This document shows, in pieces, positions 3,402 to 61,682 of a DNA stretch of 64,000 nt. This DNA comes from an uncultured Clostridium sp. GTDB lineage: Bacteria; Bacillota; Clostridia; TANB77; CAG-508. Where the stretch lies: the NCBI GenBank assembly GCA_930980855.1, contig CAKNIZ010000006.1, positions 2,189 through 66,188 on the forward strand. The letters run 5' to 3'. The first letter of the stretch is position 1. Each line of letters opens with the position of its first letter. The position numbers were made by a program, and so were the translations under genes. Under the pieces are notes generated by a model. It worked only from the letters and a program-made list of their open reading frames with translations. It made no database searches and was not told the origin of the DNA.

Positions 3402-3501
3402 AAAAAACTAATATTGATTATTGTTCAAAGCGAGCGAAGGCTTGGAGTGAGCTGTACGGTAACGTCCTCGTACCGGGAACAATAATCAATATTAGTTTTT
3501 T
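3402..3501. repeat. hairpin element copy A: perfect 25-bp AT-rich inverted repeat around a 50-nt GC-rich core
   Basis: 3402-3426 AAAAAACTAATATTGATTATTGTTC is the exact reverse complement of 3477-3501. The core 3427-3476 is about 58% GC and contains GCGAAGGCTTGGAGTGAGC...ACGTCCTCG, which is shared with copy E. Confidence 0.85.
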
Positions 3502-3508
3502 ATTGCAT

Positions 3509-3603
3509 AATATATTTAAATTTTACAGTTTAACACAATTTGAAGCTTGAGAGTTTAAGGAATTTATCAGCGACAGTAAGAAACAAAAAATTAAGTATAT
3601 AAT
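3509..3603. repeat. hairpin element copy B (degenerate, AT-richer relative of copies C and D)
   Basis: TATATTTAAATTTTACAGTT...GCTTGAGAG...CGACAGTAAGAAACAAAAAATTAAGTATATA aligns with copy C (32348-32432). It abuts the pepP-like stop codon. Confidence 0.6.
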
Positions 3604-5419: not shown

Positions 5420-5438
5420 TTTAATTAATCTCCTCTCA

Positions 5439-5927
5439 CTATTTTGCACTATAATTCTTTAAAATTCTTTTTTCCAATTTTCTTTTTATATTGTTCAATT
5501 TTACTTTTTCTTCACAAATTGGATTTGTTAATATTGAAAACATTTTCATTCTTTTTGCACCTAGGACATCAGTAAATATCTGGTCCCCAACTTCTGCAAT
5601 CTTTTCATTGTTCTGAATATTCATCAATTTTTTTGCTCTTTTAAAACCAATTTTAGTTGGTTTTAGTGCAAAGTACACATAAGGTATATCTAGTATTTTC
5701 GCTATTTTCTCTACTTTACGCTTTTTTATACTATTTGAAATTATGCAAAACTTTATATTGTTTTCTTTCAGCTTTTGAATCCATTCTTGTAATCCTTCAA
5801 GTGGATTCCTATCTAAGTCTATAAGTGTGTTATCTGAATCTAAAAACATATATTCTATATTGTTCTTTTTTAACATTTTTATTGTTATATCTGTAATTTT
5901 ATTCACATGTTCATCTGGTAAAAGCAT
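5439..5927 (-). CDS. YqeG-family HAD-IIIA phosphatase
   Basis: HAD motif I FLDSDNTL, size 162 aa, N-terminus typical of the YqeG family. Confidence 0.8.
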   Translation of the reverse strand: MLLPDEHVNKITDITIKMLKKNNIEYMFLDSDNTLIDLDRNPLEGLQEWIQKLKENNIKFCIISNSIKKRKVEKIAKILDIPYVYFALKPTKIGFKRAKKLMNIQNNEKIAEVGDQIFTDVLGAKRMKMFSILTNPICEEKVKLNNIKRKLEKRILKNYSAK

Positions 5928-5964: not shown

Positions 5965-6004
5965 TATAAAAAATATATATGTCAAGGATTATTCCTTGAC
6001 ATAT
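5965..6004 (-). terminator. Rho-independent terminator downstream of tex
   Basis: 12-bp stem ATATGTCAAGGA/TCCTTGACATAT (5977-6004), followed on the minus strand by a U-run. Confidence 0.8.
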
Positions 6005-6005
6005 T

Positions 6006-8159
6006 TTAACCAATATTTTTCATTGATAGCTTCACTTTTTGTCTTTCCTTGTCGATGCCTATGACTCTAACTTTTACAATATCTCCAATAGATACTATAT
6101 CACTTGGTTTCTTTACAAATTTATCACTTAATTCAGAAATATGTACTAGTCCATCATGTTTTACGCCAATATCTACAAACGCTCCAAAATCAGTTATATT
6201 TCTTACAGTTCCTGTTAATACCATTTCTTCTTGTAAGTCCTCAAATTTTAGGACATCATTTCTAAGTATTGGTTTTGGCATATCTTCTCTTGGGTCTCTT
6301 CCTGGCTTTGAAAGTTCTTTGATTATATCTTCTAAAGTCATCTCTCCAATATCTAGTTCTTTTGAAAGTTCTTTTACTTTTACTCCACTTAATTTCTTTC
6401 TTATCTCTTCTAATTTATCTTTTTCTAATAAATCTTCTTTTTTGTATCCAATTTTATTTAATAGTTTTTCAGCTGCTTCATAACTTTCTGGATGGACTGC
6501 CGTAATTTCTAATGGATTTTTTCCGCCTGGTATTCTGATGAATCCCGCACACTGTTCATAAGCTACATTTCCTAATTTAGGTACTTTTAAAAGTTCTTTT
6601 CTTTCTTTTAGTTTACCATTTTCATCTCTATATTTTACAATATTTTTTGCTATTGTTTTATTTATTCCAGAAACATATGAAAGGAGTGATGCTGTTGCTG
6701 TGTTTACGTCAACACCTACTGTATTTACTGCATCTTCTACCACTCCTGTTAGACTTTCAGATAATTTCTTTTGGTCAACATCATGTTGATATTGTCCAAT
6801 TCCTATTGCTTTTGGGTCTATTTTCACAAATTCAGCAAGTGGGTCTTGTAATCTTCTTGCTATTGAAATTGCTCCTCTTAATGAAACATTTAAGTCAGGA
6901 TATTCTTCTGTTGCAAGTTTAGAAGCAGAATATACAGAAGCTCCCGCTTCACTAACTATTGTATAATATACGTCTTTATTAAATTGTTCTTTCACTTTTT
7001 TCAAAGTATTAGAAACAAAGATTTCAGACTCTCTTGATGCTGTTCCATTACCTATTGCTATCATCTGTATATTATCTTTTGCAATAAGTCTAATAAGCTC
7101 TTTTTCTGCTCCTTCTATATCATTTTGTGGCTCTGTTGGATAAACTACTCCTGTATCTAATACTTTTCCAGTCTCGTCTATAACAGCTAATTTGCATCCT
7201 GTTCTATATGCTGGGTCAAAACCTAATACTGTCAAACCTTTTAAAGGTGCTCCTAGTAACAATTGTTTTGCATTTTTTCCAAATACTTCAATCGCCTGTT
7301 TATCTGCTTTTTCAGTCAAGTCAGACCTAATCTCCCTATCTAAAGATGGCTCAATAAGTCTTTTAAAACTATCTTCGATTGTTTCAAGAAGTATTTTTTC
7401 ATATCTAGGATTTTTAATCACTCTTTTTGCTATTAAACCTATAATTTTATCTGCAGGTTTTTCTAAAGATACTTTTAGAAATTCTTCGTTTTCTCCTCTA
7501 TTTATTGCTAAAATTCTATGGCTAGGGATAGTGCTAATTTTTTCACTATAGTCGTTATACATACTATATGTAGGATTTTCTTCCTTAGCATTTTTAGTAT
7601 GTATAATTCCTTCTCTATAGTAAATTTTCTTTATTTGCTTTCTATATTCTGCATCATCAGAAATATCTTCTGCAATAATATCTTTTGCACCACCAATAGC
7701 TTCTTCTACAGTTTTTACTTCATCATTAATGAATTCTTTTGCAATTTCTTCAAGTGGTTTAGTTTCCTTTTGCTCTTTAATAATTTGAGCTAGTGGTTCT
7801 AAACCTTTCGCTTTGGCAACTGTTGCTCTTGTCTTTTTCTTTTGCTTGTATGGCCTATATATATCCTCTACTTCTGTTAGAGTTTGCGCTATTTCCAGAT
7901 TTTTTACAATTTCATCTGTTAGCTTTCCTTGATTTTCTATTGAGGTTTTTACTTCTTCTTTTCTTTCTTCAAGGTTTCTTAAATATTTTAATCTTTCGTC
8001 TAAGTTTCTTAAAACTTCGTCACTTAGTCCTCCAGTTACTTCTTTTCTATATCTTGCAATAAATGGAATTGTATTACCACTATCTATAAGTTCAATAGTT
8101 TTTTCCACTTGATTTTCTTTAACATTTAATTCATTTGCAATAATTTCTACAATATTCAT
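6006..8159 (-). CDS. tex: Tex-like transcription accessory protein (S1 RNA-binding domain protein)
   Basis: 717 aa. Tex N-terminal/HTH, YqgF-like and HhH regions, plus a C-terminal S1 domain (GTVRNITDFGAFVDIG...HISEL). Confidence 0.95.
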   Translation of the reverse strand: MNIVEIIANELNVKENQVEKTIELIDSGNTIPFIARYRKEVTGGLSDEVLRNLDERLKYLRNLEERKEEVKTSIENQGKLTDEIVKNLEIAQTLTEVEDIYRPYKQKKKTRATVAKAKGLEPLAQIIKEQKETKPLEEIAKEFINDEVKTVEEAIGGAKDIIAEDISDDAEYRKQIKKIYYREGIIHTKNAKEENPTYSMYNDYSEKISTIPSHRILAINRGENEEFLKVSLEKPADKIIGLIAKRVIKNPRYEKILLETIEDSFKRLIEPSLDREIRSDLTEKADKQAIEVFGKNAKQLLLGAPLKGLTVLGFDPAYRTGCKLAVIDETGKVLDTGVVYPTEPQNDIEGAEKELIRLIAKDNIQMIAIGNGTASRESEIFVSNTLKKVKEQFNKDVYYTIVSEAGASVYSASKLATEEYPDLNVSLRGAISIARRLQDPLAEFVKIDPKAIGIGQYQHDVDQKKLSESLTGVVEDAVNTVGVDVNTATASLLSYVSGINKTIAKNIVKYRDENGKLKERKELLKVPKLGNVAYEQCAGFIRIPGGKNPLEITAVHPESYEAAEKLLNKIGYKKEDLLEKDKLEEIRKKLSGVKVKELSKELDIGEMTLEDIIKELSKPGRDPREDMPKPILRNDVLKFEDLQEEMVLTGTVRNITDFGAFVDIGVKHDGLVHISELSDKFVKKPSDIVSIGDIVKVRVIGIDKERQKVKLSMKNIG

Positions 8160-16010: not shown

Positions 16011-16100
16011 TTTCATTATTCTTGATTTCGTGCATTTTATCATGTTTATTATTTTTGATTTCGTGCAACTTGGCTCATTTATTATTTTTGATTTCGTGTT
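16011..16100. repeat. three direct repeats (~33-34 bp period) with core TTGATTTCGTG
   Basis: Cores at 16022-16032, 16056-16066 and 16089-16099, each preceded by (T)CAT(G)TTTATTATT. The array ends just upstream of the -35 of the second DUF4143 ATPase gene. Confidence 0.85.
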
Positions 16101-16106
16101 TTAGTA

Positions 16107-16135
16107 TTGATATATATATTTTTTTATGATAAAAT
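16107..16135 (+). promoter_or_regulatory. sigma-A type promoter for the DUF4143 ATPase gene
   Basis: TTGATA (16107-16112), 17-nt spacer, TAAAAT (16130-16135). Confidence 0.6.
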
Positions 16136-16163
16136 CAATCATAGGAAGGAGTTTAATATTTGT

Positions 16164-17516
16164 ATGAAAAGAAAAATTTATAATACCATTTTAAATTGGA
16201 AAAAAGAAAGTAATGGTAGAACTGCTTTATTAATAGAAGGAGCTAGACGTGTTGGAAAAAGTTATATTGTAGAGCAATTTGCTAAAGAAAACTACAAGTC
16301 TTATATTCTAATAGATTTTTCAAAAGTATCTAAAGAAATAATAGAATTATTTGATAATTATTTAGATAATTTGAATTATTTATTTACATATCTATCTGAA
16401 TATTATGGAGTAAAATTATATGAAAGAGAATCATTATTTATTTTTGACGAAATACAATTTTGCCCTAGAGCAAGAGGTGCAATCAAGCATTTAGTTGCAG
16501 ATGGAAGATATGATTATATTGAAACTGGTTCTTTAATATCTATCAAGAAAAATGTTAAAGATATTTTAATTCCATCAGAAGAAGAAATTATTAAAATGAA
16601 TCCAATGGATTTTGAAGAATTTTTATGGGCTATGGAAAATAATACTTTAATGGATTTCATAAGAGAATGCTATTCTTTAAAAAAGGAACTTGGTCAGGCT
16701 CTTCATAGAAAAGTTATGGATTACTTCAAGGAATATTTAATAGTTGGTGGAATGCCACAAGCAGTGTTAGAATATAAAGAAACAAGAGATTTTGAAAAAA
16801 CTGATAAAATAAAAAGAAATATTTTAAATTTGTATCGTGAAGATATACGAAAACATTCTGACGAACTTAATTTAAAAGTAGAACAAATTTTTGATACAAT
16901 TCCTTCTCAACTACAAAAACACGAAAAGAAATTTAATTTATCAAATTTAGATGATAATGCCAGATACAGAAATTATGAAAGTGCATTTTATTGGCTTTCT
17001 GATGCTTGTCTTATAAATATTGCTTACAATACAACTGAACCTAATATTGGTCTTGGTCAAAGAATTGATGATAATAGTTTAAAATGTTATATGTTTGATA
17101 CAGGATTACTTCTTTCAATGACATTTAATGAACAAAATATAATTAATGAAGAAATTTATAAAAAAATATTATTTGATAAATTAACTTTTAATGAAGGAAT
17201 GATTTTGGAAAATATGGTATCTCAAATGCTTGTTAATAGTGGAAGAAAGCTATATTTCTTTTCAAGAAATAACCGTGAGGATTCAGCTGAAACAATGGAA
17301 ATAGATTTCTTAATATCTGATAACCACATAACATCTAAACACAATATAGTACCTATAGAAGTAAAATCTGGTGATAGGTATACCTTTTCATCACTTTCAA
17401 AATTCACTTCTAAGTATAATGACTATTTGGGTAAACCAGTAATTATTCATACTAAGGATTTGGCTGTAAAAGATGATATTTTGTATTTACCAATATATAT
17501 GACTGGGCTTTTATAA
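16164..17516 (+). CDS. AAA+ ATPase with DUF4143 domain (COG1373-type), second paralog
   Basis: Walker A IEGARRVGKSY, Walker B FIFDEIQ, DUF4143-like C-terminus. Start set at ATG 16164 after GGAAGGAG. It is the only long plus-strand gene in the window. Confidence 0.8.
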   Translation: MKRKIYNTILNWKKESNGRTALLIEGARRVGKSYIVEQFAKENYKSYILIDFSKVSKEIIELFDNYLDNLNYLFTYLSEYYGVKLYERESLFIFDEIQFCPRARGAIKHLVADGRYDYIETGSLISIKKNVKDILIPSEEEIIKMNPMDFEEFLWAMENNTLMDFIRECYSLKKELGQALHRKVMDYFKEYLIVGGMPQAVLEYKETRDFEKTDKIKRNILNLYREDIRKHSDELNLKVEQIFDTIPSQLQKHEKKFNLSNLDDNARYRNYESAFYWLSDACLINIAYNTTEPNIGLGQRIDDNSLKCYMFDTGLLLSMTFNEQNIINEEIYKKILFDKLTFNEGMILENMVSQMLVNSGRKLYFFSRNNREDSAETMEIDFLISDNHITSKHNIVPIEVKSGDRYTFSSLSKFTSKYNDYLGKPVIIHTKDLAVKDDILYLPIYMTGLL

Positions 17517-18469: not shown

Positions 18470-20203
18470 TTATTTTCTTTTCAATATTTTTTTCAGATAA
18501 CGAATTTGTTCTGGTGAAAATATTTTGTTTAATATTTTTTTTACATCACCTTTTATTCCTTCTTCTTTGTTTTTATTCCAAAATCTTTTTAATATGGTTG
18601 CATCTTTATTTGCATCTGTGAATACTTCAAATATTATTGGCTTGTCACTTGTTTTTGCAAACTCTTTTAATCCTTTATCTAGTTCTTCTTGATTTTCTGC
18701 TTTAATATATTTGATATTTTCTGAAATAATAGTATCTTTTATTTTTGTATGATGTCTTGCAGCAACATGCTTATCCAATGTCGGTATCATCTTCAATCCG
18801 AAGTTTTTGTAAAACTCAGCTCCTGCATAATTATTAATTATTAATATTCTCATATTATTTTTATCTATATATTTAATTGAATTTAAATCATATAAAAAGC
18901 TTAAATCTCCCACAAGTAAGAAACTCAATTTATCTGTTGAATTGGCTTCACCTATATATGTAGATAACGCTCCATCTATTCCATCTGCTCCGACATTTGC
19001 AAAACATTTAACATTATTTTTAAATCCAAAATAATTTGAAATTCTTATTGCGTTTAAAACGCTAGCATGCACAATAGAATTTTCTGGTACACTTTTGCAA
19101 AAATCTCTAATAACACTGAAATTAGTGAATCCTAACTCTTCATATTTTAGTTTATTCATTCTTTTCTTCCAAATATCATAGTATTCATGTGAATTAGTTG
19201 TTGAATTATCGTTAATATTCTTCAAAAAAGTAATCGAAGAACATTCAAACACTTTAGTTAATCTTTTAAACCCATCATTTATTTTTCCATCTATAGCTAT
19301 TTGCCAATGCTCAAAATTATATTCTGAATTACTAAAGAAGCTTCTTATTGGAGAGTAAAATACTGTTCCTATTGTAATCATCAAATCCGGCAGCATTTTT
19401 TCAATTTCTGTTTTAGTAACACATTCTCCTAAAACACTAGCATTTATAAATTTTTCTCCATTAATATTACTATAATTATCACATAAAACTACACAATTAT
19501 ATTCTTTTTCAATCTCATTTAGTAAAATACTTAATTGATTATTCTCAGATATATCCATTCCTACATAAAAAATAATTTTTTTCTTATTTTTTAATTCTTC
19601 TTTTATATTATTGTAATCTATATTAGTTTCATCTAGTCTCTTTATTATTCTTTGATTTGGTATAACTTTAGCTGAAAAATCTCCCCAATTTAAAACACTA
19701 TAATTTATTTGAATAGGGCCTTTTCCATTGTGATTTAGCTCAAGTAATGCTTCATTTATGATTCTATTTGAATAAACTTCATCATTTAAACTTTTTACCT
19801 CCGGAACATCTATTGCATATTTTACAAATCCCTCATACATATCTACTTGATTTATTAACTGTTCCTTCATTTGATAAAGTTCGTATCTTTCCCTATCTGC
19901 TGTTAATGCAATTAGCTGTATATTTCTTTCATATGCTTCTTTAATTGCAGGAGCATAATTACAAGTTGCAGTGGCTGCAGTACATGTGATACATACAGGT
20001 TCATCTAAAGCTTCTGAAAGTCCTAATGCAAAGAAAGCTGCACTTCTTTCATCAACTATTGAATAGCATTTAAAATTAGGATCATTTTCAATACTGTGCA
20101 CTAATGGTGTATTCCTAGAACCAGGAGAATTAACAAAATACTTTATTCCATGTTGTTTTAATAGTGATATTAGTATTTGAACATTTTTTACTGTTGAATA
20201 CAT
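18470..20203 (-). CDS. thiamine-diphosphate-dependent enzyme, MenD (SEPHCHC synthase)-like
   Basis: N-terminal PYR domain (SPGSRNTPL, DERSAAFFALG) and C-terminal PP domain (GADGIDGALST...GDLSFLYDLN). No other menaquinone genes are nearby. Confidence 0.75.
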   Translation of the reverse strand: MYSTVKNVQILISLLKQHGIKYFVNSPGSRNTPLVHSIENDPNFKCYSIVDERSAAFFALGLSEALDEPVCITCTAATATCNYAPAIKEAYERNIQLIALTADRERYELYQMKEQLINQVDMYEGFVKYAIDVPEVKSLNDEVYSNRIINEALLELNHNGKGPIQINYSVLNWGDFSAKVIPNQRIIKRLDETNIDYNNIKEELKNKKKIIFYVGMDISENNQLSILLNEIEKEYNCVVLCDNYSNINGEKFINASVLGECVTKTEIEKMLPDLMITIGTVFYSPIRSFFSNSEYNFEHWQIAIDGKINDGFKRLTKVFECSSITFLKNINDNSTTNSHEYYDIWKKRMNKLKYEELGFTNFSVIRDFCKSVPENSIVHASVLNAIRISNYFGFKNNVKCFANVGADGIDGALSTYIGEANSTDKLSFLLVGDLSFLYDLNSIKYIDKNNMRILIINNYAGAEFYKNFGLKMIPTLDKHVAARHHTKIKDTIISENIKYIKAENQEELDKGLKEFAKTSDKPIIFEVFTDANKDATILKRFWNKNKEEGIKGDVKKILNKIFSPEQIRYLKKILKRK

Positions 20204-36022: not shown

Positions 36023-36137
36023 TTTACTATTTCCTTTCATTTTTGCTGCTTTTATTCCCATATTAGTTATATACCACAAATAGACAAAAGTCAACATTTT
36101 GTGAGGATATAAGTACAAATCTCAATTTTTAAAGAGC

Positions 36138-36184
36138 AAAAAAGAATGCCCGCACCCGAACGATCAGCTCGTTCGAATGCAGGC
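36138..36184 (-). terminator. GC-rich Rho-independent terminator of the 86-aa ORF
   Basis: Minus strand reads GCCTGCATTCGAACGAGCTGATCGTTCGGGTGCGGGC then ATTCTTTTTTG. The inner perfect stem is CGAACGA/TCGTTCG. Confidence 0.8.
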
Positions 36185-36191
36185 AAACTCG

Positions 36192-36452
36192 TCATCGTTT
36201 TTCTCCATCTTTGAAAATCAAGATGATTTTCCGGTTTTCCTTCCTCATCTCGATTGCCACCTCTGGATAGTCTTCGATTTGACGAATCCGAAACTCCATC
36301 TCTGCAATGGAGATTTCATTGTCTAGAAACCGTCTGGCTTCTTCGACAATCTTCATCGCAATAGGGTCATACATGAGTCTTGGAGACGAAATCTCCACTT
36401 CCCACAATTCGGATTCTTTCATTGCTGTTGGTTGCTCACGGAATTTTTCCAT
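36192..36452 (-). CDS. 86-aa hypothetical protein, compositionally foreign (about 40+% GC against a high-20s% background)
   Basis: Strong RBS GGAGGG, its own promoter and terminator. Uses G/C-ending codons, including three in-frame CGG. No family recognised. Confidence 0.6.
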   Translation of the reverse strand: MEKFREQPTAMKESELWEVEISSPRLMYDPIAMKIVEEARRFLDNEISIAEMEFRIRQIEDYPEVAIEMRKENRKIILIFKDGEKR

Positions 36453-55295: not shown

Positions 55296-55369
55296 GTTTC
55301 CTCCTTGCAATAAAAAGCTCGCATATGAATAAGTATCATATCGAGCTTTTATAATTAATTTATGTTTTT

Positions 55370-58396: not shown

Positions 58397-58632
58397 TTTT
58401 GAGTTTCGAGATTAAAAAAGATGTTACGATTCATAGCTATTATTGTTTTTTATAATTGTATATTTGAACTTTTTGTTCCTTGCGGTCGCTACGCTCCAAA
58501 CGCACTTCGCTAAAGTCCCTTTAGCTCGTTTGAACGCTTACGCGGAACTGCAAAGTTTCAAATATACAATTTTATTAAATTAATAACAAGTTGCGAATCA
58601 TAACATCTTTTAAAAAATCTCGAAACTCAAAA
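58397..58632. repeat. nested hairpin element copy D: inner element 58456-58569 inside an outer ~50-bp imperfect inverted repeat
   Basis: The inner element TTGTATATTTGAACTTTTTGTTCCTTGCGGTCG...CGCGGAACTGCAAAGTTTCAAATATACAA is the reverse orientation of copy C. The outer arms are 58397-58445 and 58581-58632 (TTTTGAGTTTCGAGATT...). Confidence 0.85.
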
Positions 58633-58688
58633 TTTATACAATATCAAAGCACTTTATATCGCTGTGAATTGTAGCTATTTAAGCAAAA

Positions 58689-61089: not shown

Positions 61090-61121
61090 TTTACATCTCC
61101 TTTCATAGTTTAAATATATAA

Positions 61122-61243
61122 TGTAAATTTAATAATAATTAATGTTTTACTATTTCACGCCGCGAGGACGCGTCGCCCGACTCACTCTTGGCTACGCCAA
61201 ATCGCTCCTCTGAAATTGAAAACATTATTATTATAAATTTACA
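61122..61243. repeat. hairpin element copy E
   Basis: Arms 61122-61148 TGTAAATTTAATAATAATTAATGTTTT and 61219-61243 form an inverted repeat. The GC-rich core ...CGAGGACGCGTCGCCCGACTCACTCTTGGC... is the reverse orientation of copy A's core. Confidence 0.8.
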
Positions 61244-61253
61244 ATAGGTATTT

Positions 61254-61682
61254 TTAAACTATCAAACCTGTAACTAGTCCTATAAGAGCTCCAGCTGCTA
61301 CTTGCACAGGAGTATGACCAGTTTTTTCTTGTAAATATTCACCTGGAGTCATATCTTTATATTCTTTTACCACTTTATTTAAAATATGTGCTTGTTCTCC
61401 AACAGCTCTTCTCACTCCAGAAGCATCATACATTGTTATAAAAGCAAATAGTGCGCTAAGTGCAAAAACAGGAGAATCGATTCCTATGTACTTTGCTATT
61501 AATGTTGCTAAAGACACAACAACTGCTGAATGTGAGCTTGGCATTCCACCAGCTCCCATGAATCTTTTAAAATCCCACTTTCCTTCTTTCACATATTCAT
61601 ATAATACTTTAAATGTTTGTATACCAAACCATAATATGAATGGTACTATTAAAAATTTATATTGATTAAAAAATTCTATCAT
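61254..61682 (-). CDS. divergent PAP2 family membrane protein (DUF212)
   Basis: The GGMPSSHSA motif, 142 aa, 4 TM helices. Confidence 0.85.
   Translation of the reverse strand: MIEFFNQYKFLIVPFILWFGIQTFKVLYEYVKEGKWDFKRFMGAGGMPSSHSAVVVSLATLIAKYIGIDSPVFALSALFAFITMYDASGVRRAVGEQAHILNKVVKEYKDMTPGEYLQEKTGHTPVQVAAGALIGLVTGLIV

Follow-up and report, generated by a model that had tools for sequence, protein, structure and literature searches.

The stretch of DNA considered here (the window; 64 kb from an uncultured gut Clostridium sp.) has a GC content of 24–31% and carries nearly all of its genes on the minus strand. A first-pass annotation had placed five hairpin-like intergenic elements in it, A to E, all of which are present. 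Each follows a stop codon and precedes the next gene, as had been described, and that gene is co-directional, on the minus strand. The genes flanking the elements are ordinary: an M24 peptidase gene and ftsE, a Lon-like protease gene and ychF, sleB and a thioredoxin gene (trx), and a DUF212 gene and fhs, encoding formate–tetrahydrofolate ligase (FTHFS). Comparisons were drawn with approximately 60 contigs (given labels such as L002 or L013) from the same uncultured gut Clostridia species and from a sister species, whose FTHFS is 86% identical to that of the window as protein and approximately 83% as DNA. Exact matches to its proteins locate the window in the ENA metagenome contig ERZ27234787:k141_116613. 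The sequence fetched totals 1.4 Mb. The five elements, in window coordinates, are as follows.

3402–3501, no strand assigned: element A, with perfect 25–27 bp AT-rich arms (3402–3426 and 3477–3501) and a flanking A-run and T-run
3508–3602, plus strand: element B, a decayed short-type member of the family described below, with no hairpin; absent in L174 and L175
32348–32432, plus strand: element C, an intact short-type member, with arms TTGTATATTT... and core CAGTTCCGCG...GCAAGGAAC
58456–58569, minus strand: element D as first drawn, a long-type member
61122–61243, no strand assigned: element E, with 20–27 bp AT-rich arms around a single-copy 62-nt core of 61% GC

Inverted repeats enclosing a core were confirmed for A, C, D, and E. 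The arms of A are 25 nt long, 100% complementary, and separated by 50 nt; those of C are 26 nt at 85% complementarity; those of D, 28 nt at 82%, are nested inside a 40-nt outer pair; and those of E, 20 nt at 85%, are accompanied by an outer pair of 18 nt. The cores are indeed GC-rich for this AT-rich window, at 49–61%. Folding relative to shuffled sequences gives z-scores of −7.1 (A), −7.0 (C), −6.5 (D), and −5.3 (E), and these four are strong, long hairpins; B, which had been counted with them, no longer folds (z +0.9). The sizes first given to two of the elements need revision, as the D locus is a single palindrome of 246 nt and the E locus a single one of 172 nt.

The similarity among B, C, and D indicates that they are one small mobile palindromic repeat family, previously unnamed. 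Within the window, blastn-short relates the three at E values of 6e-5 to 1e-3; nhmmer recovers D at 3e-21, C at 9e-21, and B at 8e-12; and a covariance model (R1), a check that the annotation had proposed, recovers them at 84.5 (D), 101.5 (C), and 39.6 bits (B), while A and E score in their arms alone and on both strands. Family copies are 85–190 bp long and non-coding, and at least 12 distinct copies or loci were found. A complete copy consists of nested layers: outer terminal repeats, GTTACAATTCACAG; AT-rich arms, TTGTATATTTnAAAyTTT; and a palindromic GC-rich centre, CAGTTCCGCG...TTGGAG...CGACnGCAAGGAAC. The long type corresponds to the short type into which 37 nt of palindromic sequence have been inserted internally; the insertion supplies the conserved GTTTGGAGC with a pairing partner and contributes a hairpin at the tip. 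The annotation had located the conservation in the loop alone; most family copies also have arms and outer terminal repeats in common. The alignment over arms and core comprises ten distinct copies, with the inner TTGTATATTT arms in 9–10 of them, and full copies bounded by GTTACAATTCACAG-type terminal inverted repeats are D itself and those in L013, L014, L158, and L163.

The two arms of the family co-evolve, as shown by compensatory pairs. RNAalifold gives a structure of 23 pairs in which 97.4% of the cells are paired. Compensatory changes affect 8 of the 23; the corresponding number is 4.2 ± 1.1 in shuffles, none of 500 attaining 8, and 0–2 in slid controls. The tip stem also varies compensatorily, from GCTAAAG/CTTTAGC to GCTGGAA/TTCCAGC to GCTTAAA/TTTAAGC. 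The arms are simple mutual complements with no internal palindrome, that is, with no repetitive extragenic palindromic (REP) unit. Family copies lie either way round with respect to the uniformly minus-strand genes, and the G.T pairs, in those copies that have them, fall on the non-transcribed orientation; we therefore attribute the symmetry to selection or correction of the hairpin at the level of DNA rather than to RNA function.

Comparing related strains for filled and empty sites, as had been suggested, proved informative, and the family copies are present in some strains and absent in others. Five presence/absence or replacement polymorphisms were found between strains. A search of the other same-species contigs with the family profile (B, C, and D) identified copies at three sites that are empty in the window.

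5977–6004, minus strand: empty site at the terminator after tex, an intact hairpin (ATATGTCAAGGA-ATAA-TCCTTGACATAT) with a 12-bp stem
5430–5449, minus strand: empty site without a hairpin, between the phosphatase and A24 peptidase genes, with one CAAAATAG
55313–55350, minus strand: empty site at an intact terminator hairpin that precedes the MBOAT gene

At the first of these sites, between tex and the phosphatase gene, L013 and L016 carry a long-type copy; one terminator arm is kept, and 11 nt (the rest of the other arm and the loop) are replaced. At the second, L014 has a full copy of the short type, with GTTACATTCACAG...CTATGAATTGTAAC as its bounds and, on either side, an 8-bp duplication (CAAAATAG/CAAAATAA) of the motif that is single in the empty window site. 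At the third, a short-type copy in L002 and L155 sits exactly in the terminator loop, and its host stem there is longer and more perfect than that of the window. Additionally, L163–L166 (98% identical) have a complete short-type copy in the sleB–trx spacer where the window has the long-type D, and B is absent from L174 and L175 (95% identical), with the empty allele GTAATTATTTA|AATATATAATGCAAT. At that junction ATTTA is repeated and the tip of the B right arm is left behind; it could be either an empty site or a slippage deletion. Three further family copies lie within 9.6 kb to the right of the window end. One of these three has a long-type core (L154, approximately 213–313; R1 score 42.5 bits) inside unrelated, perfect 18-bp arms, and the sister species (L158) has a complete copy with near-perfect terminal repeats and flanks AATTATTT/AATAATTT that agree at 7 of 8 bases. 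Flanking 8-bp duplications were thus found at two of the five full copies (L014 and L158). These data show that family copies are gained, lost, or exchanged between close strains, and that they are clustered, nested, in either orientation, and often inside terminator hairpins.

Several other features of these neighborhoods were recorded. The GC-rich core of the sister copy contains a nested 24-nt AT-rich hairpin (L158, approximately 20170–20195; TGTAAAATTCGAAGAATTTTAGCA), a palindrome within a palindrome. Another short-type copy lies between metK and tex in a divergent lineage, lineage II (L174, 1784–1868; L175, 129–213); gene order there differs from that of the window, in which an ABC-transporter-like gene is upstream of tex. 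Assemblies break at the palindromes: the L021 contig starts exactly at the end of an A arm, and a run of N in L163 (10991–11090) falls exactly at the 55313–55350 terminator, the site of the L002 family copy.

No transposase or recombinase was identified among 16 window proteins scanned, which comprised the element-flanking genes and atypical open reading frames (ORFs), most window ORFs lying outside that scan. The sole long plus-strand gene was rejected as a candidate, as it encodes an AAA_14/DUF4143 ATPase, and the other genes checked have housekeeping or sporulation functions. No Y1 transposase was found among the genes called in the fetched loci (the window and the neighborhoods). Two ISLre2-family (UPF0236) transposase genes lie just past the right end of the window (L154, 3616–5055 and 6989–8473). 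The one nearest the window is a strain-specific insertion, since it is absent there in L152 and L156, and these insertion sequences were rejected as a mobilizing partner, their ends being unlike the family terminal repeats.

As far as can be seen from the sequences searched, the family is confined to one uncultured low-GC gut Clostridia species and its sister. A strict element-pattern scan of 185,579 GTDB species representatives returned one true match and 48 chance matches, and a high-copy cross-species repeat was rejected on that basis; the true match is copy C in the species' own metagenome-assembled genome, uncultured Clostridia bacterium BRZ_ES__bin90. A metagenome scan with the FTHFS protein recovered only relatives at or below 71% identity, in which the spacers are short. 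A plasmid origin was rejected on the basis of a blastn search of D and E against 72,556 plasmids, which returned nothing relevant, and a phage origin on that of three viral-contig pattern scans, which gave no match for the D-type and A cores; the scan with the E pattern gave only chance matches of 19–25 nt in phages of 62–72% GC.

The annotation had joined all five cores in one family, which is borne out for B, C, and D; A and E have no demonstrable link to these three or to each other. A single five-member family was rejected after local and global alignments against dinucleotide shuffles, two profile hidden Markov models (HMMs), and the covariance model failed to link either the A or the E core. 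The core proposed to be shared by A and E is not similar above chance (p 0.03–0.2, depending on scoring); the HMM profiles of the family match neither element; and global alignment gives p 0.26 and 0.85. With filters off, R1 gives approximately 22 bits to the arms of A and E, about equally on both strands, a score that reflects the long AT-rich stem and, for E, arm tips (TTGTAAATTT) near the family tips (TTGTATATTT). These tips are one base apart, such that the description of the stems as unrelated was right only in part. The power of such tests is low: the certainly homologous cores of C and D, taken alone, reach only p 0.04–0.18, and A and E are therefore unproven relatives rather than excluded ones. 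Both cores, including the 50-nt core of A (3427–3476; 58% GC), occur once each in the 1.4 Mb fetched.

The locus of A in the sister species holds an ordinary AT-rich terminator hairpin with a 5-nt loop, AAAAAAAGTAAATAGTAGAGCATTATT-AAAAA-AATAATGCTCTACTATTACATTTTT. The outer stem and T-tail of this hairpin align with those of A, and A therefore resembles that terminator carrying a GC-rich stretch of 50 nt within its loop. An intrinsic-terminator scan (G+C-rich stem, short loop, and T-run) found no terminator-like site at any of the four loci; A may nonetheless be a functional terminator, because T8 follows its stem and it replaces the ordinary terminator of the sister species. The pneumococcal repeat SPRITE, which resembles a Rho-independent terminator (PMC3184786), is comparable as a Firmicute intergenic repeat of approximately 100 bp with a terminator-like stem-loop; in contrast, the present elements fail the canonical scan, and flanking runs of A and T are confined to A.

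E is absent from the sister species, in which the DUF212–fhs spacer measures 33 nt, against 164 nt in the window, and contains no hairpin; in more distant relatives this spacer is 25–114 nt long, in some cases with ordinary hairpins. The larger palindromes at the E and D loci are given below with their parts.

61101–61266, no strand assigned: whole E-locus palindrome, with outermost arms 61249–61266 and 61101–61118
58416–58611, minus strand: D element at full length, with its outer terminal inverted repeats (AAAAGATGTTAYGATTC...); the part that is inverted in L002 and L155
58388–58633, no strand assigned: whole D-locus palindrome, with an outermost 13-bp stem GAGTTTCGAGATT (58401–58413 and 58616–58628) enclosing full-length D
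58629–58675, minus strand: remnant left half of a second copy, GCTACAATTCACAG plus spacer plus ATTGTATAAATTTT, directly after the sleB stop

The 172-nt fold at E (z −9.4) occupies almost the entire spacer. Its outermost right arm (61101–61118), beside the fhs ribosome-binding site, is an inverted copy of the last DUF212 codons (61249–61266; 18 nt at 89%). These codons are ancestral, since the sister species has the same ones, and part of the stem was therefore made from flanking host sequence. The 246 nt at D fold as a single DNA hairpin (z −9.9) that spans nearly the whole spacer, and the terminal repeat in the 47-nt remnant beside it is the same one that opens the complete short-type copy in L163–L166. 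A and E are read here not as proven family members but as hairpins of the same architecture that probably arose in a similar way, GC-rich DNA of foreign or rearranged origin having become lodged in a hairpin or having formed one.

Three of the palindromes are found in opposite orientations in different lineages. L002 and L155, of lineage II, are 93–95% identical to the window with collinear flanks; in both, D matches on the opposite strand over 236 nt at 90% identity, and E over 133–148 nt at 93–95%. The breakpoints of the D inversion lie at the inner edge of the terminal repeats, within a few bases of GATTC, and the arrangement at E is the one predicted for inversion between the outermost repeats. 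The 50-nt loop of A is reversed in L020, L174, and L175, also of lineage II, three independent assemblies with the same substitutions; one arm pair of A reads G-C in the window, G.T in L020, and A-T in L174 and L175. The whole palindrome can thus invert once it is long, as it has for A, D, and E between the two lineages. An assembly artefact was rejected as the source of these inversions: the longest perfect repeat common to the D arms is 13 nt, the inverted alleles have substitutions of their own, and the three assemblies agree for A. Beside the inverted E, between it and the DUF212 stop, L002 has an extra 36 nt (1036–1071; AACATATTTATTTTAAAATCGTTTCATTGATATTGA) with no window counterpart.

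Among contigs at 97–100% identity, no flip was observed at A (approximately 9 contigs), C (10–11, all in the same orientation), D (10), or E (14), and the orientation of the elements tracks the single-nucleotide polymorphism (SNP) haplotype. This constancy argues against rapid phase variation. A promoter scan of the A, C, D, and E loci placed the strong ftsE and trx promoters outside the palindromes, with only weak AT-rich promoter matches in the arms and no promoter-like site in the GC-rich cores.

The closest precedent for these inversions is the flip-flop of plastid genomes, in which hairpin loops of 5–50 bp are inverted between repeats of 11–24 bp (PMC12928735). There, too, a segment between hairpin-forming repeats is found in both orientations across lineages, with no dedicated recombinase; the present case differs in that it involves a bacterial chromosome, segments of 50–236 nt that include whole mobile elements, and flips only between lineages approximately 5% apart. 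A survey of the literature on bacterial terminator-loop inversions, or on Clostridium miniature inverted-repeat transposable elements (MITEs) in terminators, found nothing directly comparable. Known bacterial MITEs include the Correia elements of Neisseria, ERIC of enterobacteria, RUP of pneumococcus, and bcr1 of Bacillus cereus (definition in PMC3184786). These are shorter than 200 bp and intergenic, have no ORF, consist of terminal inverted repeats around a core that form a long stem-loop, vary among strains, and are sometimes flanked by target duplications. The present family agrees with this definition in size, terminal repeats, multiple copies, and strain polymorphism. Unlike these elements, it is almost wholly palindromic, its arms co-vary, and its centre has twice the GC content of the genome; its flanks are duplicated at two of five full copies, no parent insertion sequence is known, and copies nest in, or extend, host hairpins.

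These data are probably best explained by MITE- or REPIN-like selfish palindromes, which are maintained within terminator hairpins and are inverted when their arms recombine. Inserted into a hairpin, a palindrome would merely lengthen it and hence be tolerated, whereas insertions elsewhere in the very short spacers would hit promoters or ribosome-binding sites. Mobilization would occur in trans, by an enzyme encoded outside the window; candidates are a DDE transposase, as the two copies with 8-bp duplications would suggest, or an enzyme whose substrate is a single-stranded hairpin. Co-evolution of the arms could reflect selection on the hairpin or, alternatively, template switching and the correction of mismatches inside it, and inversion could likewise proceed by recombination or template switching between the palindrome's own arms. 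The arrangement at the E locus suggests that a palindrome may also grow outward by inverted copying of its flanks. Any cellular effect would be secondary, for instance as a terminator or as a hairpin at which mRNA ends or is processed.

Several observations weigh against this explanation. By the alignments described above, A and E appear to lack homology to anything else. The strict scan of GTDB representatives yielded only copy C, and on that pattern the other copies must be diverged. D and the copies in L013 and L163 have no flanking duplication; instead, their inverted symmetry continues into the flanking sequence. Neither an autonomous element with matching ends nor a terminal-repeat pair at insertion-sequence spacing was found, the latter in approximately 150 kb of same-species sequence. 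The "empty" alleles of B and E retain sequence like one arm tip and could be deletion products. The flips of A, D, and E all belong to one divergent lineage, the other having none, a pattern unlike that of simple clock-like random flipping.

The annotation's own suggestion, that a GC-rich element inserts into the loops of terminators, fits three cases (L002; L013 and L016; and A as compared with the sister species); it is not a rule, as the L014 site and the sister E site have no hairpin. A stronger form of this idea, which we consider unlikely though not implausible, would have the GC-rich core alone mobile and integrating into single-stranded loops of AT-rich hairpins, the common arms and outer repeats being those of hairpins colonized once and then co-copied. 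The long-type core directly within unrelated perfect 18-bp arms in L154, the L002 copy exactly inside a terminator loop, the position of A at the site of a sister-species terminator with a 5-nt loop, the further 24-nt hairpin within the core of the sister copy, and the internal insertion by which long and short types differ all speak in its favor. Yet 9–10 of the 10 aligned family copies have arms as well as core in common, the L014 insertion carries arms and outer repeats together, with an 8-bp duplication, at a site that has no hairpin, the empty E site of the sister species has none either, and the core/arm junctions show no conserved target motif. A parallel is offered by insertion sequences that target palindromes: IS1397/ISKpn1 and IS110-family elements enter REP sequences (PMC1525189, PMC3184786) and, as here, represent mobile DNA within a pre-existing extragenic hairpin. 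These are full insertion sequences with a defined target, whereas here the insert is itself no more than a small palindrome, unrelated terminators serve as host hairpins, and some insertions fall outside hairpins.

A more speculative possibility, and an unlikely one, is that these are self-propagating palindromes of an undescribed kind. A GC-rich seed at a hairpin tip, in single-stranded or cruciform DNA, would recruit its flanks by inverted copying into longer, copy-specific, perfect arms, and the whole would flip as a unit, perhaps via a lineage-specific hairpin-processing enzyme; A, E, and the odd-armed copy in L154 would then be stages of one process.

It is improbable that the elements are a structured RNA family, whether a small RNA or a cis-acting element for mRNA processing or stabilization, under selection at the RNA level. 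The strong predicted folds and the compensatory changes speak for such a family. Moreover, C (30 nt past the stop of the Lon-like gene and 33 nt ahead of the ychF start) and E are separated by 32–33 nt from the start codons downstream of them; this interval holds no good promoter, and both are thus probably transcribed within operons. The annotation had raised this reading and named a match to a known RNA family as a result that would overturn its own proposal of a new family: in the Rfam search, the cores match no known RNA family and no element has a match at gathering thresholds. At E ≤ 5 the sole match is of A to mir-315 (33 bits, against a gathering score of 63), which occurs on both strands and was rejected as a generic long-hairpin artefact. 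Copies in both orientations relative to transcription, three of them inverted between lineages without loss, also argue against an RNA, as do the G.T pairs on the non-transcribed orientation, the presence or absence of copies between near-identical strains, and orthologous sites in relatives that have no element.

A strict REPIN origin seems comparably improbable. REPINs are REP doublets that form hairpins (two inverted REP units) and are mobilized by RAYT (REP-associated tyrosine, Y1/HUH) transposases on single-stranded DNA (PMC3116915; PMC3333891). Like the present family, they are extragenic, replicate as a symmetric hairpin doublet, show frequent two-sided compensatory changes (PMC3116915), and bear evidence of excision and insertion; that most copies here have no target duplications is also consistent with such an origin. 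The family differs from REPINs in that no short REP-like palindrome occurs within an arm, 8-bp duplications flank two copies, no RAYT gene or Y1 transposase was seen among the genes called in the fetched loci, the host is an AT-rich Firmicute, and the copy number appears modest.

Finally, it is very doubtful that A, D, and E are programmed invertons, in which a site-specific recombinase would regulate the downstream ftsE, trx, and fhs: as in the phase-variable invertible promoters common in gut bacteria (PMC11892184), intergenic segments between inverted repeats occur here in both orientations, with D breakpoints within a few bases of GATTC and three flips in one lineage that could reflect a lineage-specific enzyme, but at the assembly level orientation is constant in all contigs at 97–100% identity, from many samples, with no mixture among close strains, and follows SNP haplotype, ftsE and trx have their strong promoters beyond the palindromes, no promoter-like site occurs in the GC-rich cores, no recombinase site is common to the arms of A, D, and E, the segments are very short (just 50 nt at A), and no recombinase was found nearby among the 16 window proteins scanned, a set outside which most window ORFs lie.

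Other repeats and atypical segments were observed in the window and its relatives. At 41866–42095, two GC-rich units, each a palindrome of approximately 29 nt (CGACCAAGGGGGACGCCCCTTTTTGGTCG), are inverted as 49-nt arms at 86% complementarity. They enclose 132 nt of AT-rich sequence and lie in the interval from the yebC terminator to spoIIIAA; the arrangement is REP-like or inverton-like and unrelated to the hairpin family. A GC-rich hairpin at 36145–36190 (within 36131–36452) adjoins an 86-codon minus-strand ORF (36192–36452) of approximately 47% GC, which has no Pfam match and looks foreign in this 28% GC genome, between the tsaD-like and spoIIIAH genes. Immediately upstream of the AAA_14/DUF4143 ATPase gene (16107–17516), which is the only long gene on the plus strand, three 21-nt direct repeats (TTyATTATTyTTGATTTCGTG) are spaced exactly 33 nt apart (16012–16098), in a layout reminiscent of iterons or an operator array. 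In L161 (16272–17013; 98% lineage), compared with 42431–50766 of the window, yebC directly follows the CBS-domain gene, and approximately 6.4 kb (approximately 43014–49471) are missing or moved. In L073, a relative with approximately 70% protein identity, GC-rich palindromic motifs (GGGACTGTCCC, twice) lie just after sleB (approximately 7460–7530), suggesting that GC-rich palindromes in AT-rich spacers may be common in the wider clade.

These loci illustrate, at the resolution of strains, small selfish palindromes in a lineage of gut Clostridia that is uncultured and very AT-rich and for which, to our knowledge, such repeats are essentially undescribed. Three behaviors are seen side by side: turnover between strains, residence in terminator hairpins, and inversion of whole palindromes. 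The elements break metagenome assemblies, with contig ends or gaps exactly where they lie; they would give false positives in screens for invertons, and they are convenient as strain markers. If the arms really do grow by inverted copying of their flanks, these loci would offer a natural setting in which to study how bacterial palindromes form and the role of template switching.

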